This document shows positions 22 to 30,370 of a stretch of DNA of 31,731 nt, piece by piece (the stretch's first letter is position 1; every line of letters starts with the position of its first letter). A program made the translations under genes and the position numbers. The stretch is from the NCBI GenBank assembly GCA_000165425.1, contig CT868041.1, forward strand, positions 620,001 to 651,731, given 5' to 3'. Below the pieces are notes generated by a model. The model was not told the origin of the DNA and did not search any database. It saw only the letters and a list, made by a program, of their open reading frames with translations. The stretch comes from Paramecium tetraurelia. Taxonomy: Eukaryota.

Positions 22-1333
22 TCATATATATTGAACATCTATTGCCTTGCTTAATCTTTGGTAATCGCCTGTAAATGTGACTTCAAATTCTTAATTTTCT
101 GAAGTTCTTTTGTTATACATTTCAATTTCATGCACTTTTGATATAAATCTATATTAAATAATTCAAATTAAATACCCAAATTTCTTTGGTTTTATTAATC
201 TAAAATCATGTTAGAATGCTTTCCAATTATCTGTTAATACTTAGCCAAGCGTTCCAACTTTATTTTCATCTTCAGATATAAAATCTCTGTAAGCAAAGGC
301 AAAAATACTTGCAAGAGTCATGCAAAGCATTTCTACACAAACTAGAGTGTTCTTGTTAATTATTTTTGATTATTTACTTCTATGGCACTTATGATTGTAG
401 CACTGCTATATTTTGCTTCATCTGGTTCAAAACAGCTTGAAATTTCTTCTTCAAAAATTGATAGGGTTAACGATTACCAGAAGGTAAAAAATAACGTTAC
501 TTTTATAATCAAGAATTTGAGTAATGGTCTATAGAATTAATATAAATTTGTACTTGTATGGTTGTAAAGGATGCTTTAGTGCATAATAAAACAAAATTAG
601 GTAATAGAGTGAGAATGTTTCACTCGTTATGATGATAAATTCAAAGCTTGACATCAATCTTTACTTTAAATATGAAATATAAAAATACTGCGTATAACTT
701 ATGATGAAATGGGTGCAAAACTATGATTAAAATAGTGAGAACAGGTTTCACAACACAATACTAAAGAACAAATTTCTTGCATCTATAAGTGAAATACTTA
801 GCTTTAGCCTTCCTAATGAATTAAATTAATATTATACGTAGTTAATAGGTATCTTTCAGTACAGTAATTAACCGGCCACAAATGATGTATTTCTTTTTCA
901 TGTTCAATCATTGTTTGATAAACGCGATCATCGTATAATTGTTTATCCTCTGGATTATATGCCATATAAGAGAACATAAGGTAGAAAAATGTGAACAACA
1001 GAAAAGCCAAATAAATATCACGAACCAATTCGAAATAGGATGCTAAACCCTGTTTACTACTATATTTGAATTTATTCTTACATGAAATTCCATCGACATT
1101 ATTGAAATTAATCCATAAAAAGGTGCCATCATGAGTATAACTAATAGTATAAAGATTATTTTGGTACTTATGATTTTACTTTGAAAAAAGGGCATATTGA
1201 AATTCATTAGGTGTCTAATAATTAAATACAATGATATCATTAAAGAGATCACCACACATCCTATAGACAGCAATAACCCATCGGTCAGGAGGGTTTCTAT
1301 ACAATCTTCATCACATTTATAAGGGCAAATCAT
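22..1333 (-). CDS. TMEM184: TMEM184 / organic solute transporter OSTalpha-family membrane protein (multi-exon)
   Basis: Ciliate-code translation from ATG 1333 to TGA 24-22 (...DVQYI*). Family motifs: HLMNFNMPFFQSKIIIILMMAPFY, VRDIYLAFLLFTFF, PLLKFLIIKVTLFFTFWQ, ENTLVCVEML...AFAY. Several tiny GT-AG introns (e.g. 1141-1167). Confidence 0.92.
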
Positions 1334-1592
1334 TAAAATTAAATATAATTATAAATATACTTTTCTAATTTTAGAATAACCGATTTCATTTTTAAATCCA
1401 TTTCATATAGCTCTGAGAAGTCACCTTTAAAATATTCATAACAGCAAAAATAAAAAAATATTTGAAAAATTTGTTTCTGTTTTATTTTCTAAGTTTCTGA
1501 TTGTATTTATCTTCTTAATTCTTTCTACATTAGAAAAGAAGAATATAAGTACATATTCTTATATAGCAATACATATAAAATTAATATTGTGT

Positions 1593-3071: not shown

Positions 3072-3900
3072 TATAATTATATCAGTTAAATAATAAATTA
3101 TGATAATATCTAAAAATTATTAACTTACTAAATTATTGAATATTGTTCATGGTACCCAATTATACAGATTTGAGTATGATTTCTACATAATTATAAAAGA
3201 GAACATTAATAACTATATAAAAATATCTATTTATCAAGATTTTCACAACTAAAATTAAATTGAAAGAGAATATTGAAAAATGAACATAAGCAATTAATAA
3301 GAATTAGTTTGTAATAAATATAATTTTAAAATCATAATATGTTGCTCGAAATGTTTCATAAATAATTTAATTAAATTCTTTTGGAAAAATCAAATATAAA
3401 AATGAACTTATTCTAAATTGATTATATATGATAATACAAAGAATTCTATTCAATTTATTAAAATGTATTTTCGTAAAGAATCAATAATAATTTTTTTATA
3501 AAAAAGTTAAAGCTCAAATTATCAACACAGTATTTATGATAGTTTTATTTTTTTTAAAGTAATCAGAGGAGAATGTTATTAAGTGAGATTTTACACAGAT
3601 ATTGCTTTGTAAATTGATTACACAATTCTTTAAAAGAAATGAATCAATTATTTATAAATTAAAATGTAACAATAATTAGTCAATATAATAGATCGTTTAA
3701 GTTATAATATTCTTTTTAGCTATCATGGTATTTAATAAATTTGATTATTAAATAATAACTTTTGTAAAATTAAAACCTTGAGTAGATAATTAGAAATAAC
3801 AGGAGATGAAATTAACACTAATTATATTAAACAAAATCTTTAAATTGAGAACAATATACTTAAAGTAATAATAAATTATTTTGGTTTTTTAATAAAAATA

Positions 3901-4387
3901 ATGTCTTTGAATTCTTGTGAATAATAACTGGATTTAGATGATTCTTGTGAATCTCCTTTCTCATAATCACCTAAATCCAAAAGAATAAAGAAGTTTGAAT
4001 TGATTTCCCCTAAAAAAAATGTTGGCCATTGGACGAAGGAAGAACATGAAAAATATTTGTACTTCCTAGAGGATCATTCTGACATAAAGAAAAATAATAA
4101 AATATTCAAGTCAATGAGCGAGGTTATTGGAACTCGATCACCCAGTCAATGCAGGTATTATCTATATTTACATTAGATCACATCACTAAAAGTTTAACCC
4201 CTAATCGCCATTAGTTCAGAGAAAGACTTAAAAAGTGTAAAAACAAACTTAGTCAACTTTATAAGACGATTTAAACTTGTAAATGGATGAAGAATCTCTC
4301 AATAGAAATATGGTCCAACTTATGATCTATGATGAAGATGATTAAGTCTACTAAACTCCATAATTTAATTTAGATGATTTCTTTTGA
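3901..4387 (+). CDS. Single-repeat MYB/SANT transcription factor, SHAQKYF class
   Basis: GHWTKEEHEKYLYFLE...IFKSMSEVIGTRSPSQCR^SHHQKFNP across a 22-nt intron (4155-4176); TGA 4385-4387. Confidence 0.9.
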
Positions 4388-4934: not shown

Positions 4935-6454
4935 ATGGTGTTAACAGAACTTGGATAATCAATTAAAGGAGTTCTTAATAAATTAAATTAACCTTAACAA
5001 ATTAATGAAGTAGTTGTTGATTAAATTCTAAATGAAATATCTATTGCCTTATAGAAAACAGATGTAAATGAGAGTTTAATATAAGAGTTGAGAGAAAATA
5101 TTAGATTGGAGTTCAAATTACACTTATTAGAATTTATAAATCTCTAACGACTTCTTTAAAAATCAATAATTGAAGAATTGACAAAATTACTTTAAAATGA
5201 TATTATGTCATTTCAACCAAAGAAAGGTATATTATACTTTGAATTAAAGGATAACCTAATGTTATGATGCTTATAGGTTTAAAAGGATCTGGTAAAACGA
5301 GTACTTGCTTTAAATATGCGTACTACTTTTAAAAAAGAGGATGGAAGGTTGGGATTATTTGTGCTGGTTCATCTTAATTATAAGAGATAGATTGGGTAAA
5401 ACAGTAAGCTAAAAAGATTAAAGTTCTATTCTATGGGTAATTTCAAATAAAATATAAAGTTCTTATTTTGAATCAGATCCAGTTAACGCTACCTAGGATG
5501 GAGTTTAAATTTTCAAAAAGGAGGGAATTGATATAATACTTATAGACACGGTAGGAAAGTATGAAAAAGAAACTGATTTATGTAAAGAAATGAAATAAAT
5601 GGAGTACATGATATAACCAGATAATATTATTTTTGTGATGGATTCATCAATTGGATAAATTTGTTAAGATTAAGTATTTGTTTTCAAAAGTGCTTTTAAT
5701 TAAGGATCAATAATAATTACAAAAGTGGATCGTCATTCAAAAGGTGGAGGTGCGATTTCTGCTGTTGTAGCTACCAACACGCCTATTGACTTTATATGTA
5801 ATGGAGAAGGTCATGAAGATTTATTAGAATTTTAATCTTCATAGTTTATTAGCAAACTATTAGGATTTGAAGATCTTAAGGGGTTACTAAATAAATTAAA
5901 CAGCTTTGTTTCAATTGGACCTAAGGAAAAATAGTTTACATTAAGAGATTTGGAATCAGAAGTAAAAAAACTGTTAAAATTTGGATCAATTAATTATTTC
6001 TTTTCGAAATGCTTGATGGGAATTCCAAGTATTAATGTAAATGAAAAAGAGTAAACATAGTAGATGAAAAGATATCTTTATATTTTGAATTCAATGACAT
6101 CAAAAGAATTAGATGGACAAGGTATTTCATTATAGTAAGTGTTGTAGTAACTTTATCGAATTCTAGAATTATTCGAATAGCTAAAGGTTCAGGGACAACA
6201 ATTGAACAAGTCAATAATTTATTAAAAATCTATAAATCATTCATAAAAACCTCACACACTCCTCCTAAACACAATTTTAAAGAATTAAGTATAATTGAGT
6301 AGTGATTTTAGCGAACAAAGAATTTTCATCAAAATTATTAGAAGATATGTCGAAAGATCCAAACATACTTTAAAAATTGGGTGATTTCAAAAGTATATAA
6401 GACATGATGAAATAATTGGGAAATATATAAAATAATAACATATGTCGGAAGTGA
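4935..6454 (+). CDS. SRP54: Signal recognition particle 54 kDa protein, divergent paralog (N, G and M domains)
   Basis: MVLTELGQSI...; [70 protein letters not shown]. Introns 5227-5249, 5437-5459, 6122-6147, 6289-6311; TGA 6452-6454. Confidence 0.93.
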
Positions 6455-15594: not shown

Positions 15595-15800
15595 CTATTT
15601 TAAGAGTAATTCAAAATATTAATTGAAATAATTTCATAATTCTTTTCTTTTTAGAAATATTTAAACTACCCCAAGCTTCATTGTATTATTGGTTAAGTCA
15701 TTAAATGATAAATAAATTCTAAAGTTTTTGCTTGGCTTAATTTATACTTAAGTATTTGGGTGATAAAAATATTAATATAAATAAATAAATTAACATTAAA

Positions 15801-17744
15801 ATGAATCCATAAGATCAACTTGTAAAAATTACACTAATAAAAGTGCCAGATGGATATTAAGTTGAAGAGAAAATTTATACAAAAATAAAAATTCCAAAAA
15901 CATTTCTTGATCAATAAAAAATTACTCAACCAAAACCTACTTAAAAATAAGTTGTTTCTAAACCACCTTCATAAATCAAATAAGCAATGCCTCCACAAAT
16001 TCAACCTGTTAATCTTCCTCCACCTATGCCCCCTTAAAATAATTTAGTTCAATAATAGTTGGAAAATATTCCCTCTAAACTGATTTGGAATCCTTCCCCA
16101 GCACCTTAAAACCCTCATTAAATTAAGCAAATGCCACCCTAAAATCAATGGTTTGCTTAGCCTCAACTCCCTTAAATCCATTAACCTCCACCTCAAATAT
16201 AATAGCCACCTTAACCATAAATAACTCTGCCAATATAATAGCCATAAGAATCATAAAAACAAGAAATAAGAAGATAATTATCAAAACATTCACTGATAAT
16301 TCCTTCCTGTGCTAATTGGTTTTAGATGGATAGTATTAATGAAATTGAAAAGGATCACTTCTCTGAATTTTTTACAAATTAACATGTTTCAAAAACACCT
16401 GAACTTTATAAAAAATATAGAAACTTCATTGTTAATCTGTATAGAAACTAGCCAAGCACATATTTAACAACCATTGCGTGTAGAAAGGTCTTAGCAGGGG
16501 ATGCATGCACAATATCTAGAATTCATGGGTTTCTATAATATTGGGGTTTGATAAATTATTCTGTCGATCCAGACACATGTCCAAATAAAGTACTTCCTTA
16601 ATAAGCCTTGACAAAGAGTCTCTATAGAACCTTGTAATTAAATGCAAAAGATGAGCTTGATGAAAAAAGTGATTTAAATTAATATGAGATAACCTTGATT
16701 AATGCCATCAAAATATTTTCTAAAAGATATAGGTATTAAACAGTATTAACATTAGACCTGGTTGTTCTTTTTGCGGAATACTATGTGGATTATAATGGTA
16801 TGCCGAAAAAGAGTAGACACAAAAGGAGAAGGTAGATTAAGATAAAGTAGAGAATGTAAAAGAGGTTGAAAATAAATAGAAAAATTCAATCAAATTAGAT
16901 TTATGTATGAAGTGCTTTTCTAATAATAATTTTCCTAATAGTTTAACATCTGAGGATTTCTAATTAACTAATCTTGAGTAAAAGTTTTCATAATTACATA
17001 TCTTATCCGATTAACCTAGATCAATATTAAACGACTAAGAAGTAAGCTACCTAATTTCGATTATTCAAGAAACTTCTGATTCAAATTGGGAAAAATTAGC
17101 TTAGCAGTTGAATTAAACATTTTCGACTTCTCATACTGAGGAGGAATTAATTCTACACTTTCTTTAATATCCTATTGATCATTTAATAGAGATTGATAAA
17201 GTGATTGATTCAAAAGAATGCCTAGAGAAATTATCAATTAATGATGTATCTAGTAGAATTGCTTTTGAAGAAGTACATATTACTTTAACTTTAGCCCAAT
17301 GTTTTTAGTGACCAAAAAAACCTTGTTAGCTTTCATTTATCCATTTTCAAAAAGCTATTGAATAATTTAAATAAAAGAGATTCAGAATAATTTCTAAAAC
17401 TTGATGATGTGAAATCAAACAGTAACAATAATGAAGATGTTATTGAAGAAGAAAAAAGAGTAATATAAATGAGCTAAGAAACCTTAGAGAGGGCAAAATC
17501 TTTGTAGAAAAGGGAAGAAGAGAAATTGAATAATCATATTAATCTTTTAATAAGTTTATAGATGGAAAAACTAGAACATAAACTCACCTTTTTAGAAGAA
17601 TATGAAAAACTAATTCTATATGAAAAGCAATAATTAGAAATTTGTTAAGTAATTTAAAAATTATATTTTTAGAAATAAACTTTAGCAGAAAGATTGGTAA
17701 TAGTATAATAAAAACTATAATATTACTCGGATAATAATTAATGA
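15801..17744 (+). CDS. SWI3: SWI/SNF core subunit SWI3/SMARCC/Rsc8 (P/Q-rich N-terminus, SWIRM, ZZ-like zinc finger, SANT, coiled coil)
   Basis: IIPSCANWFQMDSINEIEK...YKKYRNFIVNLYR...[27 protein letters not shown] (SWIRM); CSFC...LCMKCF; C-terminal LQMEKLEHKLTFLEEYE. Introns 16733-16755, 17273-17294, 17649-17672; TGA 17742-17744. Confidence 0.93.
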
Positions 17745-17830
17745 AAATTTGAGCTATTCCTTGCACATATAATTATAAAATTTGTTTCATTTATTATTTT
17801 TAATTTATACGATTAACTATATTTTATTAA

Positions 17831-19840
17831 ATGGAAAATTATTAAGATGAACAGAAAGAAGTAGGTTCAATCTAGTAACTGTAATTTAATTATGAAATAC
17901 TACTAAAAGATGGAATTTCTAACTCAAATTCTTCAATAGATGAGCATTAAAAAAAAATATCTGTTGAAAAATCAACTAGGAACTCAATAGTTACGACTGA
18001 CTATTAAAATCATGTTAATCAATTGGTAAAATAATGTGAAATATTGAACTAATTTTAATTGAACAATAAGGTTGATGGAAAGAATGTTAATGTAAATTTT
18101 TAAAACTTTTGGGTGATTGAATAAAATATAGTAGATCATCAAATAGCAGAATACTCTTTGAAAATTGGTTTAGCAAATCTATTATTATTAAAAAGCAATT
18201 TGAAAGGCTCTCTCTACTGTCTCTCAAAAATTATTTCTTTTAGAAATACTAATATCACTTAATAACTTATAGACCTTGATTGGTCTCTATTGTATTTAGA
18301 TGAATTAACTGAAGAAAATTTAGAATTTTTAATATAAAATGCAAATTTAAAATGCCTATAACAATTGTTATTCTCTACAAATAAAATAGATATGATTTTA
18401 AATATAAAATCAGATTACAGCAATAAAATACTGAAAAAAATATTTACATGTTTGGACTCTTATTGTATCAGCTACAATTATGCAGAAATTCTATATCAAA
18501 AGAAAGTTATTGATAGGATTTTACAATACTTAACTGTTGCAAACTAAGAATGCTTTTAATTAATAGGTTCATTATGTTTATCTTAAAATGCGCAAAATGA
18601 AATTTTAGAAACAGATATCTAAAAAAAATTATTTTTAAATCTCAAAAGCAAAAATCCATAGATTGTTGCAAACTCATATTATGCATTATCTGGAATTTGC
18701 TTTAATTAATCGTATTTGTAGCTTAAGTTTGTTGATTCAGAGCTACCAAAATTCATGAAATCTCACTTATCTTAATCATCTGAAATTTGTATAATAGATG
18801 CATTGTCTTAATTGATTTCAAATTTAACATATAATAATGATCAAGTTAAACAAGTTCTTGGAGATTTTATTCCAAATTTAATCGATATTGTCCTAAGTAT
18901 TCTTAAATTGATAATAGATAAGAAATAACTAAAAGATTAATATGTTAAAGGGGTTAAATCTCTCTTAAGGGCAATTTGCAATCTTATTTTTATAAAATCT
19001 AATGCAATATTTGCTTGTGAACATAATTTAGGAGGGCTTTGTTCCTTTCTTTATTCAAATGAGTGTGTAATATCAGAGTATCTTGATATACAAATAAATT
19101 TAGGTATTCATTAATTGATGAATTAATAATTGCTGATATCTCTCGATAGTTTAATTCAAAAATAATAACATTAAGAGCATTTGCTAAAAATATTAGACGG
19201 TATAATTAGCTCTGCAAAACAATTTAGTAAGTTTATATGCAAAGATCTTAACTTAGTAACATACAAGAATATTTTAGTAAAATAGATTGAGAATCATTAA
19301 ATAATTTAAAAAATCTATAAATTAGTTAGCATTTTGTTAAGTGACAAACAAAATTTTATATATTTGTAAGAATGTGGCTTAATTGAAGAGATTAAACCAT
19401 TTTAGCATATTAATATTTAATATTATTATGAAAAAATTTAGAATTAATTACATGAGATTACACTTATGTCAAGAATCTTTGGGACTCAAGATGAAAAAAC
19501 TGAATAATTATTTGACGTTAAAGTTGTTAAAGGTAATAAAAAGTTAAATAATGCCATCTTATAGATCAACAAAAATTCAATTTCGATCTCTTAAAATGGA
19601 ATTACTAAATCTAAGTATATAATTTAAAGGTTGAAAGAAATTTTAGATCTAGAGATTGACTAAAAAGAATTCAAAAACATTCTCTAGATTAAAAATATTC
19701 TAAGATCTTATTGCTTTGGCCTTATTGGCTATTAAAAATCATAAATGAATAGAATTATAATACAAGCCCAAGATTCTTAATAAAAAATAAAAATTTTTCA
19801 CCTGCTCTAGCAATTTATATCTGATTAAGTTAAATCATGA
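17831..19840 (+). CDS. Armadillo/HEAT-repeat protein with a possible C-terminal PH-like domain (~669 aa)
   Basis: Start and stop in the same frame; ARM-like helices (LFLNLKSKNPQIVANSYYALSGIC, LLRAICNLIFIKSNA); C-terminal beta-rich stretch closed by a helix (CFGLIG...IIIQAQDSQQKIKIFHLLQQFI). Confidence 0.72.
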
Positions 19841-19947: not shown

Positions 19948-22900
19948 TCAATTTGATTCTACGATTAATCTTTTTATTAAATCCTTACAATTATGCTCTG
20001 TACCTATTTGATAAAATATAGCTAATGCCTAAAAAAAATAATTAACAAATACTTCGAAAAATTTTTAGATCCCATTCAAAGTTTTAAGTGAACTCTTTTC
20101 TAAAACATCATCAAGGATACTTTAACTATCAAAATTGTTCTTAGAGATCTCAGAAATCTAGAGTTGTTTTTTTCCCGTCCTTTAAGTTAGATATTCATTA
20201 ATTAAATCTCCTATTTAAAATGTTCTATTTTAAGTATTGCTATCCAAAATAGCAATCAGTTGTTTTTCTTAGTAAATTAATCCTTAAGCTATTCTTGTTA
20301 TTTCATCTATATCAAATCTGTTTAAAGAAATTATAATTTTTAAACATCTTATGTATTAGGAGTAGAGCCAACGATCATGAATTCCTAAGTGGTATAAAAA
20401 TATTCCTTTGATAGGGTGTTTATTATCTTCATACCATCCAGAAAGACTTTCATTTGTTAGATCAAGCATATCTTAAGCCTTCTACATCTGGTTTAAAAAT
20501 GTATATGATTCATATTGTATCAAATATATTATTGAGATATGAGGATGAACTAAATATGAGAATGTTTATTGAATGTTTTAATATCCATTTATTGCTTTTT
20601 AGGTGCTTGATAATATCCAATTATTTATCAATTTTTTATTAACTTTGTTTTTCGAATTTGATAAGACATTTAGCTGAAAATCTAAGAAAATTAAATTTTG
20701 ATGTATAAAGCCTGCGTCTGATTCTGTGTATAATTTAAGGGAGCTATAAGCATTATATTTCATCTCTTCATCTTTAATTTTTTTCCGAATTTACCCTATT
20801 TAATTTTATTCATCTACTAGTAAATGCTCAATCAATTTATTATCTTTTTCTTTTAACAAAAAATTAAAATACATAGCATAAATCATTTGTAAATAAGGTT
20901 GATGAGTCTTATGAATTTAGCTTAATTGTAACGAAAATAGTATATTTACTTTAGGAACATTTTTACCTAAATTTATTAGGATTCTAATATGATTTAGTAT
21001 AGCTTCATTGATAAAATCTTTATTAAATATATGTATGTAATCAGAATCTACAATTTCATCTATTAGAAACTCATATTCCATAATTTTTAAATCTTTAAAA
21101 AATGTATGTACTGGATATTCTTATATCTATATAATAAAATAAATCTTACTAATCGGCGATTAATTATTGATAGTATCGTCTATTCTTATTTCAAGAACGT
21201 GACCACATATTTCAAAACTTTTTCTGAATATTTCAAAGCATTTTCATAATCGAATAAATTAAGATGGTATTTGCATTATAAAAGAGCTAAAATAGCATAT
21301 ATGAGTGTTCTTTCTAAATAATTATTTAGGTTCAAGTCACTTTCTATTTTTTCTTAGTCTTGGTAATTGCGCTATTTTTTTGGATCAATCTTCCCAATCA
21401 TTGCTTGAATAGCATCTAACTAATATTCAAATATATGTATGAAGCGGCAATAAATTGCATTACCTTTTAAAGTGTTAATTAATTTAGTGACAATCTCTTA
21501 AATCAAAAAGTAATTTTAATTCATCATAATATTGAAAAGTATATATTATGCATAAAATTTTATGTCTTCAAAATTATAAAAAGTGTCTGTATATTCAAAT
21601 AGGTACTTTTATGGATAAGGAATGCAATTGTGATTGCTTTTATATAAGCTTTCTACTACATAAAGATCCTATTCAAACCCTTAATGCTTTTTATCAAAAA
21701 TTGGAGCTTCACATTAAATTAATCTTAAAGAAAACTAGGTCATCAAATCAACAAGATCAAATTATTAAAGTTGCAAATAATTATGAATTAGGGCTAATAC
21801 GAAGATTGATGATTCAATATCATCGTTTAAACACTCTGAAATTTATTGGTATGAGCCTCTTAAATTATGATATTACTTTAAGCTGCAATTTAAAAATTAG
21901 CAAAAGAGTTATTATTGTTACTATTTACCTAAATTTGAATCAAATTACAATTAATATCCTTTTCTGTTGTTAATTTATGTACACTTGAGTGTTTGGCAAT
22001 AGAATTTTGATTTAAACTAAAATTTTTTTATTTAATTTGTTGCATGTTTTGATATTTCATTTTCTTCTAATACAAGATTTTCAAGATGCTTAGGAGAATA
22101 CGCAAAGCAGATTGAAAGATAATAGAAAACCTATAATTCTTCTAAACTCGAATGAAAAAACCAAGAATCTTATTGTAGTTAAATCTATTAGTGAATCTGT
22201 TTTAATAATTAGATAAAAGATTATTAGTTTTAATGGCAAAATGTAGTTCTTTAGATCTAAGTAGATAAATTATGGTTAACAGGTTAAACATTATCAAGAT
22301 GTAATATAAACTAAATTAACTTAATTCTAAATAATAAGTTATAACAGCATATCTTTGAGAAAGTGAATAACTACATTGAATGTTATAAAATTTTTCTATT
22401 TTTAAAAGTTGTTTAAAGATTCGAAAAAATCATAATCTAAAATTTCAGGAGTTCAAGATCATCTGATTCTAATAAGTCCACTTATTAATGGCTGGTAATT
22501 TCCTTCCATTTTTTGAACTTTATTATTAAATACTTTCCGACATCACATTACTCTTCATACTCTTAATCTTGTTATTGGATTTCTTCTTTGTTAAGCAATT
22601 TAAGTTGATTTAGATAAAAATTATATACCGGAATATAAGCTCCTTCAATCTGCTTAAACTATTAGTAATATTTTGAAAACTCTTCATTTCTGTTATCATA
22701 TAAATTAATTAAATGAAGGTATTTAAAATATGTTAACTATGTGCAATACAATGTGTTCCTATCTATGATACCTTTAGACTTTGTTTAATATTCTTCATTT
22801 CCTATGTCATCATTGTCTTCATCTAATGGAGAAGATTACTTTAAATTAATTAAACCTGGTGTGTGATCAAGAGGTACATTCAAAAAGGTTGGGATGGGTT

Positions 22901-25900
22901 CCCGAAAGGCCAATTCTTCTTCTCTCTGAATTATTTAAATATATTAAAGATCTGCCAGAATAAAATTTTTATTGAAATAATTATAAATTGCTTTTATTAA
23001 AGTAAATTGATTTTTGTATCTTTAAATCTAAGTGTGAAATTAAATTAGAATTAAAATATACTTTGAATTTTTCCTTAAGGTACTAATTAAATTTAATCTT
23101 TCAAATGAGCTTACAGATGACTAATTATCTTATGTTTATTTAAACTTTTATTTCAAAATTGTGCGATGCTCTACTTCAGATAGATTTTCTAATTTTATAT
23201 TAAAGCTTAATTATTTTAGAATAATTTTTAGTTGACTACAGCATTTTTTTATCGCAGCGATAATTTACGAGTTTTCAGGTTCTATTTATTGCTTCAAACC
23301 AAAAAGAGCAGATATTTTAAAATAAAATATTAATAATGTATCCAAAATCTTCTTAATATCATGGGGTTTTAGAATATATGTTTGTATCTCTCGGGAGATG
23401 TAATCTAAGAATTTTTCCATAAAGTTAATAGTTTGTACATTATGTTAAGCTGCCAAATAATCTTCTGCTTCCTGAATCAATTAAATTGATTTTTTAAATT
23501 ATTTCATTCTAAGGTGAAAATTGATTTAGTGCTTCATATTCTCGATATAGAATTAATAGGATTAGTCTTTTAAATTGAGATTAAACTAAAAATTAATATC
23601 TGAGAATGGATCTTATTTTTGCATATTTTCTAAGGCCTAACTTGCTGTTAAATCATTATATAATATATCCATCAAAAAGGACAATAAAGGGTGTTCAATG
23701 TTTTTAAGGACTTCCCCCAAATCTTCGATTGGGTCTAGCAATATCATCTCCAAAATAACTTGAACTAACTAGAATACCGGATTGTCCTCTTGTAAAATAG
23801 AATTTAAAATCATATATTCATTATTACTTAAAGCATACGTATAAATTGAAAGGCTGTTTACAATACCCTTTGATAATATAATTAAATTTGCATACAAAAA
23901 TTACATTAATTAATCTATTGTGTAATGAAGTGAATGCTTTTTTCTAAATTTTATTACTTAATATAAAGTTTTACAATCTAAACAAGGGTATAAGGATACA
24001 CAATAAGCTTTTATTAAAAAATCATCAATTTAATCAATTATATTGAGTAATTTGATGTAATTCTTGCTTTCGCTAACAAAGACTCCTAATCCATTGTTGT
24101 AATGCTTTAAAAACTGCAATTATTATCCATGCTTTATTTGGAAAAATTACATTAAATATTCTTAATCCTCAACTTCAACAATCCAGAGAAGATCATGAAG
24201 ATGCTTTTTCATTGTTATATTAGGAATTTAATTCATTTCATCTAAGCAATATTATAAAACAAACTCTTCTAGTTTTGTAGAATATTATTCAAATATATAT
24301 GTGTCTTTAGATTTATCGATTATATTTTTAAACACTTCTGATTTTAAAGAATTTAGATAATAATTTTTTTATTAAATTCTCCCGTTAACTGAAGGAAATA
24401 TATAACTAGTTTTTTACCTATATAAATATCAAATTTTTATACTCATATTCTAATTTATTAAATAATTCTATAAACAATTCTAATGTATATTAATTTAACT
24501 GCGTATATTAAACTAAATTGTTAAATTTTTTATGTATATCTGAACCATTTTGAGCTTCCTCTAACTTTTTAGTTGCTTCGTAGTATTCTAAAACAAATTA
24601 AATGGCTTATTTTCTTATACTTTGTTTCCGAAATCCTCTAAAAAATAAACCCTTGTATCTGAATATTGTTACTTTTCTACAATTTAGCCATGATTTTTTT
24701 TCAATAAATTTATTATATTTTAAAACTAGCTCATTATATTCTTTTCTTTCTTCCAATGTAAGTTAATTTCCAAATTATCTAAATTATTTGCTAAATTTTA
24801 AAGCTGCCTAGGCTTTATAGTATTTATTTTGATTCTCAAAACTTTACTTTAATATTTAAAATCTCTTATAATCTAGATTATGCAATGCTTTTTATTTTCT
24901 TCTAAAATAAGATTAACTTTAAACCAATCTATAATCATTCCATAGCATATTATAAGAGGATAATAATTGAAGCCGAAAAAAAAATCGCCATATAATTGTT
25001 CTGTCCCTGATTAACTATTTAGGTCCTGATTGACAAGATTATATTTAAAATGCCCAGTTTATTGAACGCTTTTTATAATAGTTATAAAAAAATTAATAGT
25101 CTAATTTATCTACTTATTACAATTTTTTTATTATTTCTGTAATCATAAGCTAAAACTTACTTTTCCCTAATTTTTAAATTTCTTTTGCTGAATTTTATAT
25201 CTATGTAGTACTCTCAAAAGGATCAATAATACTTTTCATTCTGTTATTCTACCTTGAACTAGATACTGTAAATATAGGACTAGATACAGAATTCAAAGGG
25301 CTAGAATTTGAGATTTTTGAAGAATTTGAGTTGATTGGGCTTTATGTTTGTTTAACATGATCTTCATTTTAAATTATTTCTGCCTTTGAGATGAGATAAT
25401 TGGTTTCCTGTTCTACTAATCTCTAAGAAATCAACTAAATTTTTTTTCTCTAATGATCTAAAATTTCATCATCAGAACTAATTGTTTCAAAATAATCTGC
25501 TCTTTGCATGCCATTAGATCCAAATACTTTATATAACGGGCATCTTTATAATAGTACTTTATTCTCTTATTCTCTTCGACTACTTCTATTTGTAAGAATT
25601 TTAATATTATTCTAATAAATGTATTAGCCTCTCTTTACTATATACTCAAGTATTAATGGAGGACTTAAAAATGTCGTGTTTGTAATATATTTGATAAAGA
25701 AATTATAAAATAATAAAGTAACAAATAGCTAAATAACATCATCCTAAAGATATTTGTAATAATAAACACATATTAAACTACAATTACTAAGTAAACTAAT
25801 AAAATTAATAAATTAATGTATTTCAAACCAAATTCCTAAGGAACTATCTCCTTTCGGCCAAGGCCTTTATATTTAATATAAAAGTTTAAATTTTACAATT

Positions 25901-28900
25901 TAAAACTATAAGATCATCCATATCCAAAATAAAGTAAAACTTAATGGAAATAAGCCGCCAAACATATTGATTAATGTTGATAGTAAAAAAAATTTCATAT
26001 ATTCATCGATAATACCATATTTTTCTTGGGTTTGCTAAAAAGGAGTTTTAGATTCTTAATTTTCAATAAATGTCAGCAAATTTTTGCTTGAATAACTCTT
26101 CTCTTTTATTTATTAAATTCTCCTTTTTACATTAATTATTGTTAATAATAACTTTAACATTTAGTGTATTAGAATTAAAAATACAGTGGTACCGAAAAAA
26201 TATTATGCTTATCCAATACAATTATTTTGAGAGCACTTTAGATTCAGTTCTCCATTTAAAAAACACAAGATCAGTAATGGAAATAATTAAGAAAAACATA
26301 TAAGAGCATATTTTTTTAGGCAATAGCTGTTTTCATAATGTTCAACAGTCTAAAAATTCTCAAAATCTGTCAAAACTATTGCAATAGATTCATAATAATA
26401 TTCTACAATTATTTAAATCACATAATTCAAAATTGCTGTCACTATTATTTCAAAATTCCTAAATTAAATACTTGTACTCGCAAAGATACTTTCAAGGTAT
26501 AAATTAAAGAAGTAAAGTCCTATCGTTATGCAAACATCAGATCCAAATATCAAGATAAGAACAAAAATCGAAATACTAATTCTCCAAAAAAATTGAAAGT
26601 GAATTATCCCTGTAAAATTTAATTGATCAGTTGAAATGGATCTAATTTATTCTCCTTTAAAAGAACTTCTAATTAAGTTATATTTATAATTATTATTTTA
26701 ACCATTTTAAATGTTAAAAGCAAATTGTGTTTAATTCCAATAGTCTGTTAGAAAGCAATTTAAATTGATAATTAAAATTGAAAATATAGATTAAGCCACT
26801 AAGGATATATCATTATGCTAAATGTTAGTTGAATACATAATCATATTAAAAATTACTCCTAGTGCTGCCATGATCGTAGAAAATTGAATATAATATGAAG
26901 AAAATTTAAAGTATAATCCTATTTTTTCACCAAAGTAAATGCAAATTTTGCTTATCGGCATAGACCAAGGATATAAATAATTTAAATTCCATTTGCCAGA
27001 TAAATCAAAAGGTTATTGCTCATACATATAGAATTCTGAATTGATTTCTTATTAATGGTTATTGCTAATTCCAAATAATTCATAATTATTGTGTAAACTA
27101 AAAACAGAGTTTATCAATTTCATATTGATAAATATATCTAATCGAATTGTTGTTGAAAGAACAAAATATGCTAACTTTAATCTTTCATTGGTTGGAAATA
27201 AAGTTATTTAATGATTTTCTTTTGATAAATACCTGGACCATTTTAATTACGATTTAGCAATATTTTTTATAGATTAAGAATGTTATCGAAGGGTGAACGG
27301 AATATAAAGTTCAAAAGGCTATTAATAATATCTATCCCATATTGTTTTTAATGTTTATCCTGTGCTGTTTGCCACTTTTAAAGCCTCTTAAAAAATTAAG
27401 TAATAATTAGAAGCTAATTATTATTATTTAAACAACTTTATTTTTTTTAGAATTGGAAGCTTTTGGGATAATTAAATTTTATTTTATTGGCCTTATAGCT
27501 CTCTAATTTTTTCAAAAAGAATCTAAATTTGCTCTTATTCTTCTTCCGTAAATTCAAAATATCCTTTAGGCTTTTATCCAGTTCTTAGCGCAAATAATTC
27601 TTCTGCACTCTTTTATTTATCTAAGATTAAAGCAATATCGCTTTCTATAAAATATTTTTTTCTTTAAATTTCAATCTGTTTATTAAGATGAACAAGGTAA
27701 ATGTAATATGCCGTCCATTCATCATCAGTTGGACCTTCTTGATCTCCATAAAAATTAATTTTTCCATATTCAAATAATTCATTATTTATGTTACTTTAAC
27801 CTACATCTCTAGCTAATCTCTTAAAATTTATTTGCATTATTTAATCAATAATTAATGGTCTTAAATATTATAAGTATGAAGAAATACTATATTCGTCTGG
27901 CTTCCATAATCTGCCATTTAATCGTAGGGGTCTTAATTATTTATCAACAGGCTCGAGGGAAAATAAATCGGAGAAACAAAAACACAGTTTTTTCGAAAGT
28001 TAACAATTTTCAGCAGCTATTTCTAACATTTATTCAGGCATATATAACAAGAGATATATTTTTGATCCATCTTCAGAAATAATTGATCTGACCATAAATC
28101 CTTTTCTGGAAAATTACACTATTAAAATATTCCTTACTAATGTTAAAAGATCAGATGTTTCATTCATAGTTTTATTCCATTAAGATTGGATCAATCTTAA
28201 ATATTCCCCCTAACTATATGCTTTCTATTATTATTATTGAATTTTTTGAAAATCTATTTAAATTTGTTGAGCAGTCATTTAAATATTCCATTTGTTTTAT
28301 GATGCTAATTCCAATAAATCTTGCCTAAATTAGTTAACAGCTTTTTTTATCTAAATTTCTCTTTAGCAAAGCCCAAAATCTTATGAATTGCGATTATTAT
28401 TGTTGTTTTCAATAAAACCACAAAATTAGTTACTTTAATCAAATATTTGTTGATTTGTTCCTAATAAATTCATTGCATTTCTTTAATCATTTGGAATAGT
28501 TTCCAACCCTCTTGTTCTTTGCTCAAATAAAGAATAGGTCTTACGATCAGACAATTAAATGAATGCAATTTCGATCGCTTTTAAAAATAATTTATCCTGA
28601 ATAGATTTTTACTCTAGAACTAAGGCTTGTACAATCTAATCAACAATTTCATACTGTTTTTATTATAGCTAAGGTTCTTCTGATATATAATCTGGGTTTG
28701 GTAAACTTTATATAATTGAGAATTACCTCACAACAACTTCGGGTTCATCAAATTAGCTCAAGCAATCATCAAAACTCGCAATGTTATTCTCAGAATGCAG
28801 TAATTCCTCTTCATTTTTTTCTATACCTAGTAAATATTTAAAGTAATCTTGAAAAATCTCAACAAAATCTTCAATTTTTTCTGCTTTTGATTACTTTCCA

Positions 28901-29001
28901 GTTTTATTTATTATTTCAGGTATAAGATTTGGAAAAAACTTTGTCGGAAGTTTGGTAATAAACCTTTAATACTAGTTGGAATGGCTTGATCGAAAATTCA
29001 T
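19948..29001 (-). CDS. Giant (~2,990-3,000 aa) anoctamin/TMEM16-family protein with a degenerate kinase-like lobe and a long helical/TPR-like C-terminal extension
   Basis: Exon 29001-24443 holds the anoctamin signatures PWSMPISKICIYFGEKIGLYF, LTDFEN...YENSY, DEYMK...FGGLFPL and QRPWP...LGIW. A 25-nt intron (24418-24442) leads to a stop-free exon down to 21150, then a 23-nt intron (21127-21149), a possible 24-nt intron (20029-20052) and TGA 19950-19948. Confidence 0.85.
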
Positions 29002-29196
29002 ACAAATTATTAATCAATTTTTAATTATTTATTTATAACTATAATATTAATTTATAAGAAGAAAGTAGAAAAGGATTAAATTAAGGTTGATAGAAATACT
29101 ATATTCTTTGAAATTAAATTTCGAAAATACTCCCATATTGAAGGGATGGGCATATATAAGTGAAGAAATCTGAGAAGTAAAATTCAACATTCAAAA

Positions 29197-30370
29197 GAAT
29201 CTAAATTTTTTGCACAAATGAAATGAAAATCAATAAAAATTGCCCAAGTCATTCGTTATATCTGTTTCTCATCCGCCCTCATATTGATAATCATTAAAAA
29301 ATTTTTCAAATAGAACACAATTTAATATCAAACTATAAGATTTTTGCCTAATCTTTAGACAGATTCCTTTAAATAATTTCATTGTTTATTTCACTATTAA
29401 TATAATCCGTTTATGCTTAAAAAATGAATATTCAAGGGGTTCAAAATTCCTTCTTCTTGGACTGCTAATTTCCAATTTATTTTTTTAGATAATTTTCAGG
29501 TCCTGTTTTCCCTTTTTTGGAAAAAATTTCCTTAAGGTGAATTTTAAAATGGAGGTTTGTGGAAAATTAAACTTTTTTTTTTGGGAAACCTTTTGAGGTT
29601 GTGGTGGAAAGAAAATTTTTAAAGGAATCCCCCAGGAAANNNNNNNNNNNNNNNNNNNNNNNNNNNNNNNNNNNNNNNNNNNNNNNNNNNNNNNNNNNNN
29701 NNNNNNNNNNNNNNNNNNNNNNNNNNNNNNNNNNNNNNNNNNNNNNNNNNNNNNNNNNNNNNNNNNNNNNNNNNNNNNNNNNNNNNNNNNNNNNNNNNNN
29801 NNNNNNNNNNNNNNNNNNNNNNNNNNNNNNNNNNNNNNNNNNNNNNNNNNNNNNNNNNNNNNNNNNNNNNNNNNNNNNNNNNNNNNNNNNNNNNNNNNNN
29901 NNNNNNNNNNNNNNNNNGCATGTCCCAGCTGGACTCCTTGTGTCTAGCGAATCTAAATTTTTTGCACAAATGAAATGAAAAATCAATAAAAATTGCCCAA
30001 GTCATTCGTTATATCTGTTTCTCTTTCTACCTCATATTGATAATCATTAAAAAACTTTTCAAATAGACACAATTTAATATCAACTAGTAGATTTTTGTCT
30101 AATCTTTAGACAGATTCCTTAAATAATTTCATGCTTATTCAACTATTATATTATCTGTTTATGCTTAAATAATGATATTCAATGTGTTCAAATTTCTTCT
30201 TCTTGACTTGCTAGTTCTAATTTTATTTTTTAGTTATTTTCATGTCTTGTTTTCCTTTTTTTGTATAGTTTCTTTAGGCTGATTTTAGATTGAGGTTTTG
30301 TGAATATTATACTTTTTTTTTGGAATCATTTGATGATTGTTGGAGAGTATATTTTAATGAATCTCATGAT
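29197..30370 (+). repeat. Apparent direct duplication either side of an N gap (29197-29639 vs ~29949-30370); probable assembly artifact
   Basis: Both copies begin gaatctaaattttttgcacaaatgaaatg. The left copy gains errors and homopolymer expansions progressively toward the gap (N at 29640-29917), as a decaying read end would. Confidence 0.85.

Follow-up and report, generated by a model that had tools for sequence, protein, structure and literature searches.

Analysis of a 31,731-nucleotide stretch of Paramecium tetraurelia DNA (GenBank assembly GCA_000165425.1, contig CT868041.1, positions 620,001 to 651,731; hereafter, the window) indicated that GSPATT00006562001 is one gene for a giant anoctamin (TMEM16 protein) of 2,986 amino acids (aa), in which a membrane domain is joined to a long cytosolic tail. 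We propose that the membrane domain would scramble lipids or serve as a leak channel without a need for Ca2+, being either open at all times or under the control of the protein's own tail, and that the tail would be a folded scaffold holding the protein at a particular membrane site and recruiting partners. Counted from the membrane, the tail would consist of a very basic aromatic region, a possible dead protein-kinase fold, and about 1,180 non-repetitive residues. This reading is put forward because the degenerate Ca2+ site and the long C-terminal half parallel those of yeast IST2, and as a whole we consider it evenly poised between right and wrong. The initial annotation of this stretch had described a large anoctamin with a big built-in cytoplasmic region, made up of a pseudokinase-like lobe and a TPR-like tail. 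The large cytoplasmic region was borne out, both in this protein and in 22 of 22 full-length relatives, and ~1,870 further codons follow the last transmembrane helix in the same polypeptide, in agreement with the ~1,900 first estimated.

Gene model and transcription of GSPATT00006562001

The window has a G + C content of 19–30%, and its frames were read with the ciliate code (table 6), in which TAA and TAG specify glutamine; this was the only sensible reading. Under this code, three long open frames were found on the minus strand, at 24289-29013 (1,574 aa), 20883-24428 (1,181 aa), and 19948-21243 (431 aa). When the window was simulated 200 times with a first-order Markov model and frames were closed only by TGA, the longest frame had a median of 379 codons and a maximum of 790, so that the 1,574- and 1,181-codon frames lie far beyond chance. 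The 431-codon frame is not beyond chance on length alone and therefore rests on homology. The frame ends overlap, and exact joins are provided by GTA..TAG introns of 25 and 23 nucleotides (nt), a typical Paramecium size; the resulting two-intron product (the naive model) has 3,001 residues and a single terminal stop. The splice at 24418-24442 had been placed at the same 25-nt coordinates in the initial annotation, and the join is conserved in homologues. The outer limits given there (19948..29001) were likewise right, with an ATG at 29001 and a TGA at 19950-19948.

Two more introns were placed by comparison with homologues. The 7 residues RQFSIIQ and the 8 residues VFVNYFFQ of the naive model are absent from all 16 aligned homologues, and introns 1 and 4, which encode them, are therefore regarded as real; both segments are also missing from the database model (P0015). 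Retention of intron 1 (21 nt) or intron 4 (24 nt) would merely add 7 or 8 residues, and introns that are a multiple of three in length without an in-frame TGA are an under-represented class in Paramecium. The corrected model is predicted to have five exons and four introns (21, 25, 23, and 24 nt) and to encode 2,986 aa on the minus strand between 29001 and 19948 (Table 1). The introns are thus tiny (21–25 nt), as originally annotated, but number four and not two or three.

The gene is already represented in public databases (CAK66063.1; XP_001433460.1; UniProt A0C5J6) by a protein of 2,975 aa, to which exon 3 is 100% identical and whose public name is only "Anoctamin transmembrane domain-containing protein" (GenBank/UniProt prediction). 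Compared with the naive model, the public model has three in-frame deletions. One of them removes the 33-nt stretch that encodes VFLILIHQMLK in helix 6, and because all 16 aligned homologues keep residues there, XP_001433460.1 probably contains a wrongly predicted intron that costs it 11 residues of this helix. Apart from these 11 residues, the corrected model equals the public protein. The P. primaurelia orthologue is of equal length and identical to the corrected model at 2,561 of 2,986 residues. Some of the homologous models look mis-spliced themselves: P0011 (GSPATT00021791001) has a 7-residue insertion precisely at the intron-3 position, and P0004 and P0021 are without 9 residues beside a conserved PWPKGD motif that every other aligned family member keeps.

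Full-length relatives (n = 22, cluster members included) were all 2,737–3,007 aa long and came from five P. aurelia species, namely P. tetraurelia, P. primaurelia, P. pentaurelia, P. octaurelia, and P. sonneborni. In P. tetraurelia, four of them form a group of close paralogues, with the identifiers GSPATT00006562001, 38395001, 17003001, and 21791001. The initial annotation had asked whether orthologues might be separate proteins; none was, as all 22 carry the anoctamin and the tail in one protein. FastTree analysis of the 22 sequences gave at least seven paralogue lineages with branches of up to 0.8–1.3 changes per site, and since all members are giant across these divergent lineages, the fusion would predate the deep duplications in this lineage. 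Only seven proteins reached E ≤ 0.001 when exon 3 was compared by phmmer with the whole library (1.84 billion representatives): five were fragments (62–227 aa), and the other two, of 2,945 and 2,914 aa, were full-length. The two full-length matches are Paramecium anoctamins, to which exon 3 is 54% identical over residues 1486-2589 (2,945 aa) and 32% identical over residues 1412-2499 (2,914 aa). Word-seeded searches were performed with exon 3 and with the anoctamin region (both against longer proteins) and with a six-sequence tail profile (against proteins of 930–3,012 aa); in each of them, 12 of 12 matches were Paramecium proteins of 2,737–3,007 aa with PF04547. Some true relatives escape such word-seeded searches: three of the six proteins that built the tail profile were not returned by it. 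In JGI metagenome contigs, the tail profile picked up 591 pattern stretches, of which 0 were confirmed. In these searches, which did not take in non-aurelia ciliate proteomes as such or giant anoctamins of 1,575–2,755 aa in other organisms, and in which the tail profile was run on proteins of 930–3,012 aa, the tail was never found alone or outside Paramecium, and it appears to be restricted to giant Paramecium anoctamins.

The junction at 24418-24442 was analyzed with regard to an alternative in which two adjacent genes were wrongly merged: the anoctamin would stop at the TGA at 24291-24289, and a gene of its own would follow downstream. In the second frame, the first methionine codon is that of residue 65 (window position 24236), and this methionine is not conserved in the family alignment. 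Residues 3-64 of the same frame include 8 invariant and 10 nearly invariant columns in the 14-sequence alignment. The alternative is made very unlikely by the ~60 conserved residues that precede the first ATG, because they can be reached only via the 25-nt splice and would be lost in a separate gene, whose start would follow the upstream stop by only ~52 nt. The alignment of homologues is unbroken across the junction (...LEYE/QK...), and the 100-aa window over the splice is among the best conserved of the protein, with 89, 67, 69, and 39 identical residues versus four homologues. Neither the tail profile in the 930–3,012 aa range nor the whole-library exon 3 search produced a stand-alone tail protein. 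Points in favor of two genes are that no RNA read lies over 24418-24442, that all homologue proteins are computer predictions, and that the G + C fraction around 24400-24520 drops to the level of the flanks (0.13). The G + C profile was dropped as a test of one gene against two, as it dips to 0.13 at the junction but equally at 22930-23050 inside exon 3. Taken together, we regard a wrong merger of two genes as extremely improbable.

Transcription was assessed with three stranded oligo-dT runs of the same species label (23, 34, and 14 reads over 9.8 kb) and with the contigs of a fourth run. All 71 oligo-dT reads were oriented for minus-strand RNA and were scattered over 20254-28101 at similarly low depth in both halves, and the fourth-run contigs also covered both halves. 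The gene is expressed at a low level from the correct strand, and both of its halves are present. The RNA check over the junction that had been proposed at the outset was answered in part: both halves are expressed on the minus strand, but no read spans the 25-nt splice. No joints, starts, or ends were called in the RNA data over the 9.8 kb. In RNA run X14, two contigs match the gene at 21938 and 22590 and continue into ~250 unrelated letters; they could be chimeric or derived from a paralogue.

Membrane domain and Ca2+ site

The membrane domain was matched by PF04547 with 219.6 bits (cut-off, 28; E value, 1e-64) over model positions 1-456 of 460, and all 13 full-length homologues scanned also match this family. 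The single sequence retrieved 15 solved TMEM16 chains by phmmer at E ≤ 0.001. All 20 PDB matches of the family profile (2,959 positions; E ≤ 0.01) were TMEM16A, F, K, afTMEM16, or nhTMEM16, with a best E value of 5.7e-30, and all 20 sit on profile positions 670-1129. A complete ten-helix TMEM16/anoctamin domain is predicted from these matches. In the same comparison with the PDB, nothing matched the N-terminal 670 positions of the profile or the tail. The N-terminal cytosolic region of ~680 aa has a strongly conserved block at ~aa 276-470; a PDB search with the N-terminal 689 aa gave one irrelevant match (E value, 0.054).

Five acidic Ca2+ ligands of TMEM16A are described (PMC7118279), namely E654, E702, E705, E734, and D738. 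Over helices 7–8, mouse TMEM16A was aligned by phmmer with confidence and without gaps, and E702 is the only acid kept there; E705 is replaced by K, E734 by Q, and D738 by V, and the N730 position is occupied by W. In helix 6, no acid is aligned at the E654 position, and the alignment there is poor. Among the 17 aligned family members, Q at the E734 position is invariant (17 of 17), and D at the D738 position is kept only in two distant paralogues. The E705 position is K in this protein and in the P. primaurelia orthologue, N in the P. sonneborni orthologue, and D or E in most other lineages, with one Q. Because only one of the five acidic ligands is kept, the canonical two-Ca2+ site cannot form, and the five-acid site of the Ca2+-activated members was found to be represented by one of its five acids.

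The protein resembles TMEM16A, F, K, nhTMEM16, and afTMEM16 in its full PF04547 domain and in sequence similarity over the whole membrane domain. These canonical members have ~660–975 aa in their solved chains and carry five acidic ligands, whereas the Paramecium protein, at three times their length, retains one of the five and is extended at both ends, by a long stretch at the N-terminus and by 1,870 aa at the C-terminus.

The cytosolic tail

To measure conservation, identical residues were counted in windows of 100 aa relative to three homologues: P0017, the orthologue from P. sonneborni; P0018, a paralogue from P. tetraurelia; and P0005, a distant paralogue. Over the membrane domain (aa 701-1100), the values were 54–79 (P0017), 42–65 (P0018), and 29–39 (P0005), and over aa 1301-1700 of the tail, they were 83–89, 63–76, and 34–45, respectively. 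The remaining tail to ~aa 2900 gave 67–84 (P0017). By this measure, the tail is at least as conserved as the membrane domain. The one exception is the linker, where 58 (P0017), 17 (P0018), 18 (P0023), and 7 (P0005) residues were identical over aa 1201-1300, with many gaps. Since it is conserved along its length outside the linker, the tail (~1,690 aa after the linker) would be no disordered appendage.

Poor conservation, low complexity, and many gaps are found together only in the linker, which sits exactly at the border of the membrane domain and the conserved tail. This would suit a product that is cut within aa 1115-1300 to free a soluble protein of ~190 kDa, the fusion serving for co-expression and not for physical coupling. 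We consider cleavage highly unlikely: there is no evidence for it, all 22 relatives have retained the fusion although their paralogues diverged deeply, and a flexible linker suffices to explain the stretch.

The region that follows the linker (aa 1301-1511) is both basic and aromatic, and stretches such as IFRYKGLFFRGFRKQ resemble basic amphipathic helices. Binding of this region to membrane or calmodulin would be a guess; no IQ or other Pfam match was found in it at E ≤ 1. The next segment, the lobe at aa ~1594-1801, is acidic (pI 4.7), and the ~1,180 residues after it contain no repeats. A Pfam scan of this protein and of 14 family sequences gave no family other than Anoctamin at E ≤ 1. A phmmer search of the PDB with exon 3 gave only two irrelevant matches (E values, 0.35 and 1.2), and the tail profile gave 0 matches at E ≤ 10. 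A test of hydrophobic periodicity for helix versus strand was dropped, as its controls were not separated (kinase N-lobe, 0.75).

For analysis of the putative pseudokinase lobe, the family alignment was cut into 34 overlapping windows of 320 aa, which were compared by hhalign with a profile of 38 kinase domains from viral contigs. The best scores (21.3, 18.5, and 18.7) came from the three windows holding aa ~1640-1710, and a fourth overlapping window scored 18.9 at the predicted helix-F position; the remaining windows scored 8.8–15.2. In a more global alignment of aa 1540-1800 (public-model numbering), 203 columns were collinear with the whole kinase domain, with a score of 18.3 versus a column-shuffle null of 13.4 (standard deviation, 2.3) that reached this value in 3 of 120 shuffles. 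The hhalign kinase probability was only 0.7–1.5% (0.7% for the 203-column alignment). As a control, 76 of 76 bacterial kinase fragments scored 99.7–100% against the same profile, and their first ~100 residues alone had a median of 98%. The best alignment places VNS at the HRD position, has a gap for the DFG/activation segment, and shows no GxGxxG; to judge from these positions, the motif loss would be compatible with a dead pseudokinase only. Pfam searches (E ≤ 1) of the window pieces and of all 14 family sequences gave neither Pkinase nor PK_Tyr_Ser-Thr, and the tail profile retrieved no solved kinase up to an E value of 10.

When the equivalent 281 aa of paralogue P0018 served as a language-model query, 30 neighbours were listed at ~0.92–0.93, of which 23 were unnamed bacterial clusters and 7 were clusters with a kinase Pfam in 15–59% of their members (score, 0.92–0.93; 170–179 shared features). 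The lobe that had been annotated as pseudokinase-like fared unevenly: the best window, the collinearity, the 3 of 120 shuffles, and the 7 of 30 neighbours speak for it, but the scores are sub-significant and Pfam matches, PDB matches, and catalytic motifs are lacking. A dead kinase-like fold in aa 1594-1801 might equally be present or absent and is weakly supported; the stretch is not a recognizable kinase.

The TPR-like tail of the initial annotation was barely supported, as two isolated helix pairs were found, with no repeats and no Pfam TPR. The TPR_12 profile was built from 20 units of five bacterial genomes (a giant-virus record gave none), and the two isolated matches span 19 and 33 columns (Table 1); the median score of the 48 windows was 9.2. 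Pfam gave no TPR at E ≤ 1 for the window pieces or for any of the 14 sequences. When 13 overlapping segments of the tail were compared pairwise as profiles, no internal repeats appeared (best, 22% over 18 columns). At the level of sequence, a TPR array in the tail is not supported.

These results bear on an alternative in which the tail would be a pseudokinase lobe with a TPR-type solenoid, a signalling scaffold that would respond to phosphorylation or nucleotide state, or bind partners, and would gate a Ca2+-activated channel or scramblase. It would accommodate the rank of aa 1594-1801 as top of 34 windows (21.3, versus 8.8–15.2 outside the stretch), with its collinearity and 3 of 120 shuffles, the 7 kinase-bearing clusters among 30, and the fall of the two best TPR_12 windows within the last 430 residues. 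However, neither Pkinase nor TPR families were matched in Pfam in 14 of 14 sequences (E ≤ 1), no solved kinase or TPR protein was matched at E ≤ 10, and the hhalign probabilities of 0.7–1.5% (kinase) and at most 5.9% (TPR) compare with 99.7–100% for 76 of 76 true bacterial kinase fragments. Internal repeats, GxGxxG, HRD, and DFG are absent, 23 of the 30 neighbours are unnamed bacterial clusters, and the Ca2+ site needed for a Ca2+-activated protein is degenerate. On this evidence, we consider the alternative unlikely.

Known scaffolds composed of a pseudokinase and helical repeats include ULK4, SCYL1, and Vps15. The tail possibly shares their layout of a degenerate kinase-like lobe followed by a long helical region, although this likeness is weak. 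It differs from them in that there is no sequence-level membership and no repeats were found here. To our knowledge, none of the three is fused to a membrane transporter.

Proposed working, novelty, and surroundings

For a TMEM16 protein with an altered Ca2+ site, IST2 offers the closest parallel that could be documented. According to PMC12618243, scrambling by its N-terminal half is constitutive and needs no Ca2+, substitutions affect three of the acidic residues on helices 7–8, notably E506 of nhTMEM16 by K443, and the equally long C-terminal half tethers the endoplasmic reticulum to the plasma membrane and recruits the lipid carrier OSH6. Like IST2, the Paramecium protein continues after its TMEM16 domain into a cytoplasmic C-terminal region whose length equals or exceeds that of the membrane part. 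A second likeness is the altered helix 7–8 Ca2+ site with lysine at the second helix-7 position (K443 in IST2; the E705 position here). From the conserved spacing, E506 of nhTMEM16 probably corresponds to the E705 position of TMEM16A. The two proteins differ in size, IST2 having 946 aa and the Paramecium protein 2,986 aa with a tail three to four times longer. Both the step from a degenerate site to Ca2+ independence and that from a conserved tail to a scaffold are ones that we infer.

Several points weigh against a Ca2+-independent scramblase or leak channel with a scaffold tail. The tail of IST2 is disordered and ends in a polybasic membrane-binding cluster and a short OSH6-binding peptide, whereas the tail here is conserved, at 69–89% relative to the P. 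sonneborni orthologue over aa 1301-2900, and has no polybasic end (3 basic residues among the C-terminal 26). The lysine of IST2 bridges helix-6 and helix-8 acids, both of which are missing here, and sister paralogue lineages of the Paramecium protein keep an acid at the E705 position. IST2 is absent from the 20 PDB matches of the family profile, so that the likeness to it would be convergent. The loss of the helix-6 ligand is less certain than those of helices 7–8 because helix 6 aligns poorly. The tail has no detectable relative of known function in Pfam, the PDB profile search, or the JGI metagenome scan, and a TMEM16 fold without its Ca2+ site could be transport-dead. With regard to the gene model, none of the four introns is crossed by any read of the three oligo-dT runs or any fourth-run contig, and a single transcript is therefore deduced from conservation and predicted gene models.

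If transport were indeed lost, the TMEM16 domain would be only a dimeric membrane anchor, and the cytosolic scaffold would carry the real function. Such an anchor would be consistent with the loss of four of five acidic Ca2+ ligands and with the identity between the P. tetraurelia and P. sonneborni orthologues, which is 83–89% for aa 1301-1700 of the tail versus 54–79% for the membrane domain. The membrane domain is nevertheless complete (1-456 of 460) and constrained across lineages at ~30% identity, and IST2 can scramble constitutively without a Ca2+ site (PMC12618243). A pure anchor is in our assessment quite unlikely, and a Ca2+-independent scramblase or leak channel placed by its tail is preferred.

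This preferred reading could be extended to a family of self-contained membrane-contact or cortical machines, each combining a Ca2+-independent scramblase, a dead-kinase lobe, and a non-repetitive scaffold of ~1,200 aa without relatives outside the genus, in which the tail, and not Ca2+, would both gate and place scrambling. We regard the extension as improbable; if true, TMEM16 proteins would be regulated in a way new to the superfamily, and the tail would represent a large fold or module of a new kind.

TMEM16 proteins have been studied as Ca2+-gated channels and scramblases of ~700–1,000 residues. IST2 has recently shown that the Ca2+ site can be given up within the family and a C-terminal extension used in building a site of lipid transport. 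After IST2, the Paramecium proteins would be a second, independent, and far more elaborate case, with a folded and conserved extension of ~1,870 aa and one of five Ca2+ ligands kept. Retained through several rounds of duplication, they would form a natural experiment on scramblase regulation without Ca2+. The tail is a large orphan module, and Paramecium permits RNA interference by feeding, tagging with green fluorescent protein, and electrophysiology.

The architecture had been called undescribed in the initial annotation, and no paper describing it was found in a search that did not extend to supplements and subscription papers. It is not described among the papers found on Paramecium, Tetrahymena, or alveolate anoctamins, TMEM16, scramblases, or TMEM16 with pseudokinase, and none of four P. 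tetraurelia gene identifiers of the family occurs in the papers searched. The words Paramecium, ciliate, fused, and kinase are absent from a survey of the anoctamin superfamily (PMC5868767). A Stentor preprint mentions one ordinary anoctamin, and a Tetrahymena preprint describes an unrelated "predicted lipid scramblase," Scr7p, at the contractile vacuole, without naming its family. The open frame itself is not new, as the gene and its paralogues were already predicted in GenBank/UniProt; the loss of the Ca2+ site is new here.

Table 1. Coordinates of the features of GSPATT00006562001 and of neighbouring genes in the 31,731-nt window (pI, isoelectric point).
Feature	Position	Strand	Remarks
Exon 1	28727..29001	-	ATG 29001-28999, first ATG of the frame; homologue consensus start MNxRxS
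Intron 1	28706..28726	-	21 nt, GTA..AAG; multiple of 3, no in-frame stop; inferred
Exon 2	24443..28705	-	One unbroken frame: N-terminal cytosolic region, anoctamin domain, linker, basic aromatic region
Intron 2	24418..24442	-	25 nt, GTA..TAG; frame 1 to frame 2; join ...LEYE/QKTSYIFPS... conserved in homologues
Exon 3	21150..24417	-	1,089 codons; kinase-like lobe and mid-tail
Intron 3	21127..21149	-	23 nt, GTA..TAG; frame 2 to frame 3; join ...INRRL/IQEYPVH... in 15 of 16 homologues
Exon 4	20053..21126	-	C-terminal region of tail; open frame, kept in homologues
Intron 4	20029..20052	-	24 nt, GTA..TAG; multiple of 3, no in-frame stop; inferred
Exon 5	19948..20028	-	Ends with TGA stop 19950-19948
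Disputed 33-nt stretch	26152..26184	-	GTA..AAG; spliced out in P0015; encodes VFLILIHQMLK of helix 6; equivalents kept in 16 of 16 homologues
Anoctamin/TMEM16 membrane domain, aa 679-1114	25639..26946	-	PF04547 and TMEM16 PDB matches
Post-helix-10 segment and variable Ser/Asn-rich linker, aa 1115-1300	25081..25638	-	Only poorly conserved stretch; ~190 aa
Conserved basic aromatic region, aa 1301-1511	24448..25080	-	pI 10.0; K + R, 19%; F + W + Y, 18%; 83–89% identical to P. sonneborni orthologue
Kinase-like stretch, aa 1594-1801	23553..24176	-	Top hhalign window of 34; kinase-bearing clusters among language-model neighbours; catalytic motifs absent; weak evidence
TPR-like helix pair 1, aa 2564-2584	21204..21266	-	Score 19.2, probability 5.9%, best of 48 windows; not significant
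TPR-like helix pair 2, aa 2794-2826	20455..20553	-	Score 16.8, probability 2.5%; not significant
Neighbouring genes	657-1402 (-), 3745-4287 (+), 5182-6381 (+), 15627-17741 (+), 17753-19840 (+)		Unrelated genes

Scans of the window for Rfam families, tRNAs, and tandem repeats were empty. A run of 278 N at 29640-29917, ~640 nt upstream of the start codon, represents a gap or a masked stretch, which leaves the upstream neighbour only partly readable. The products of the neighbouring genes include an Ost-alpha-type transporter, a Myb-domain protein, SRP54, and a SWIRM / SWIRM-associated (SWI3-like) protein. A convergent open frame of 695 codons, with no Pfam match, ends 108 nt from the stop of GSPATT00006562001.

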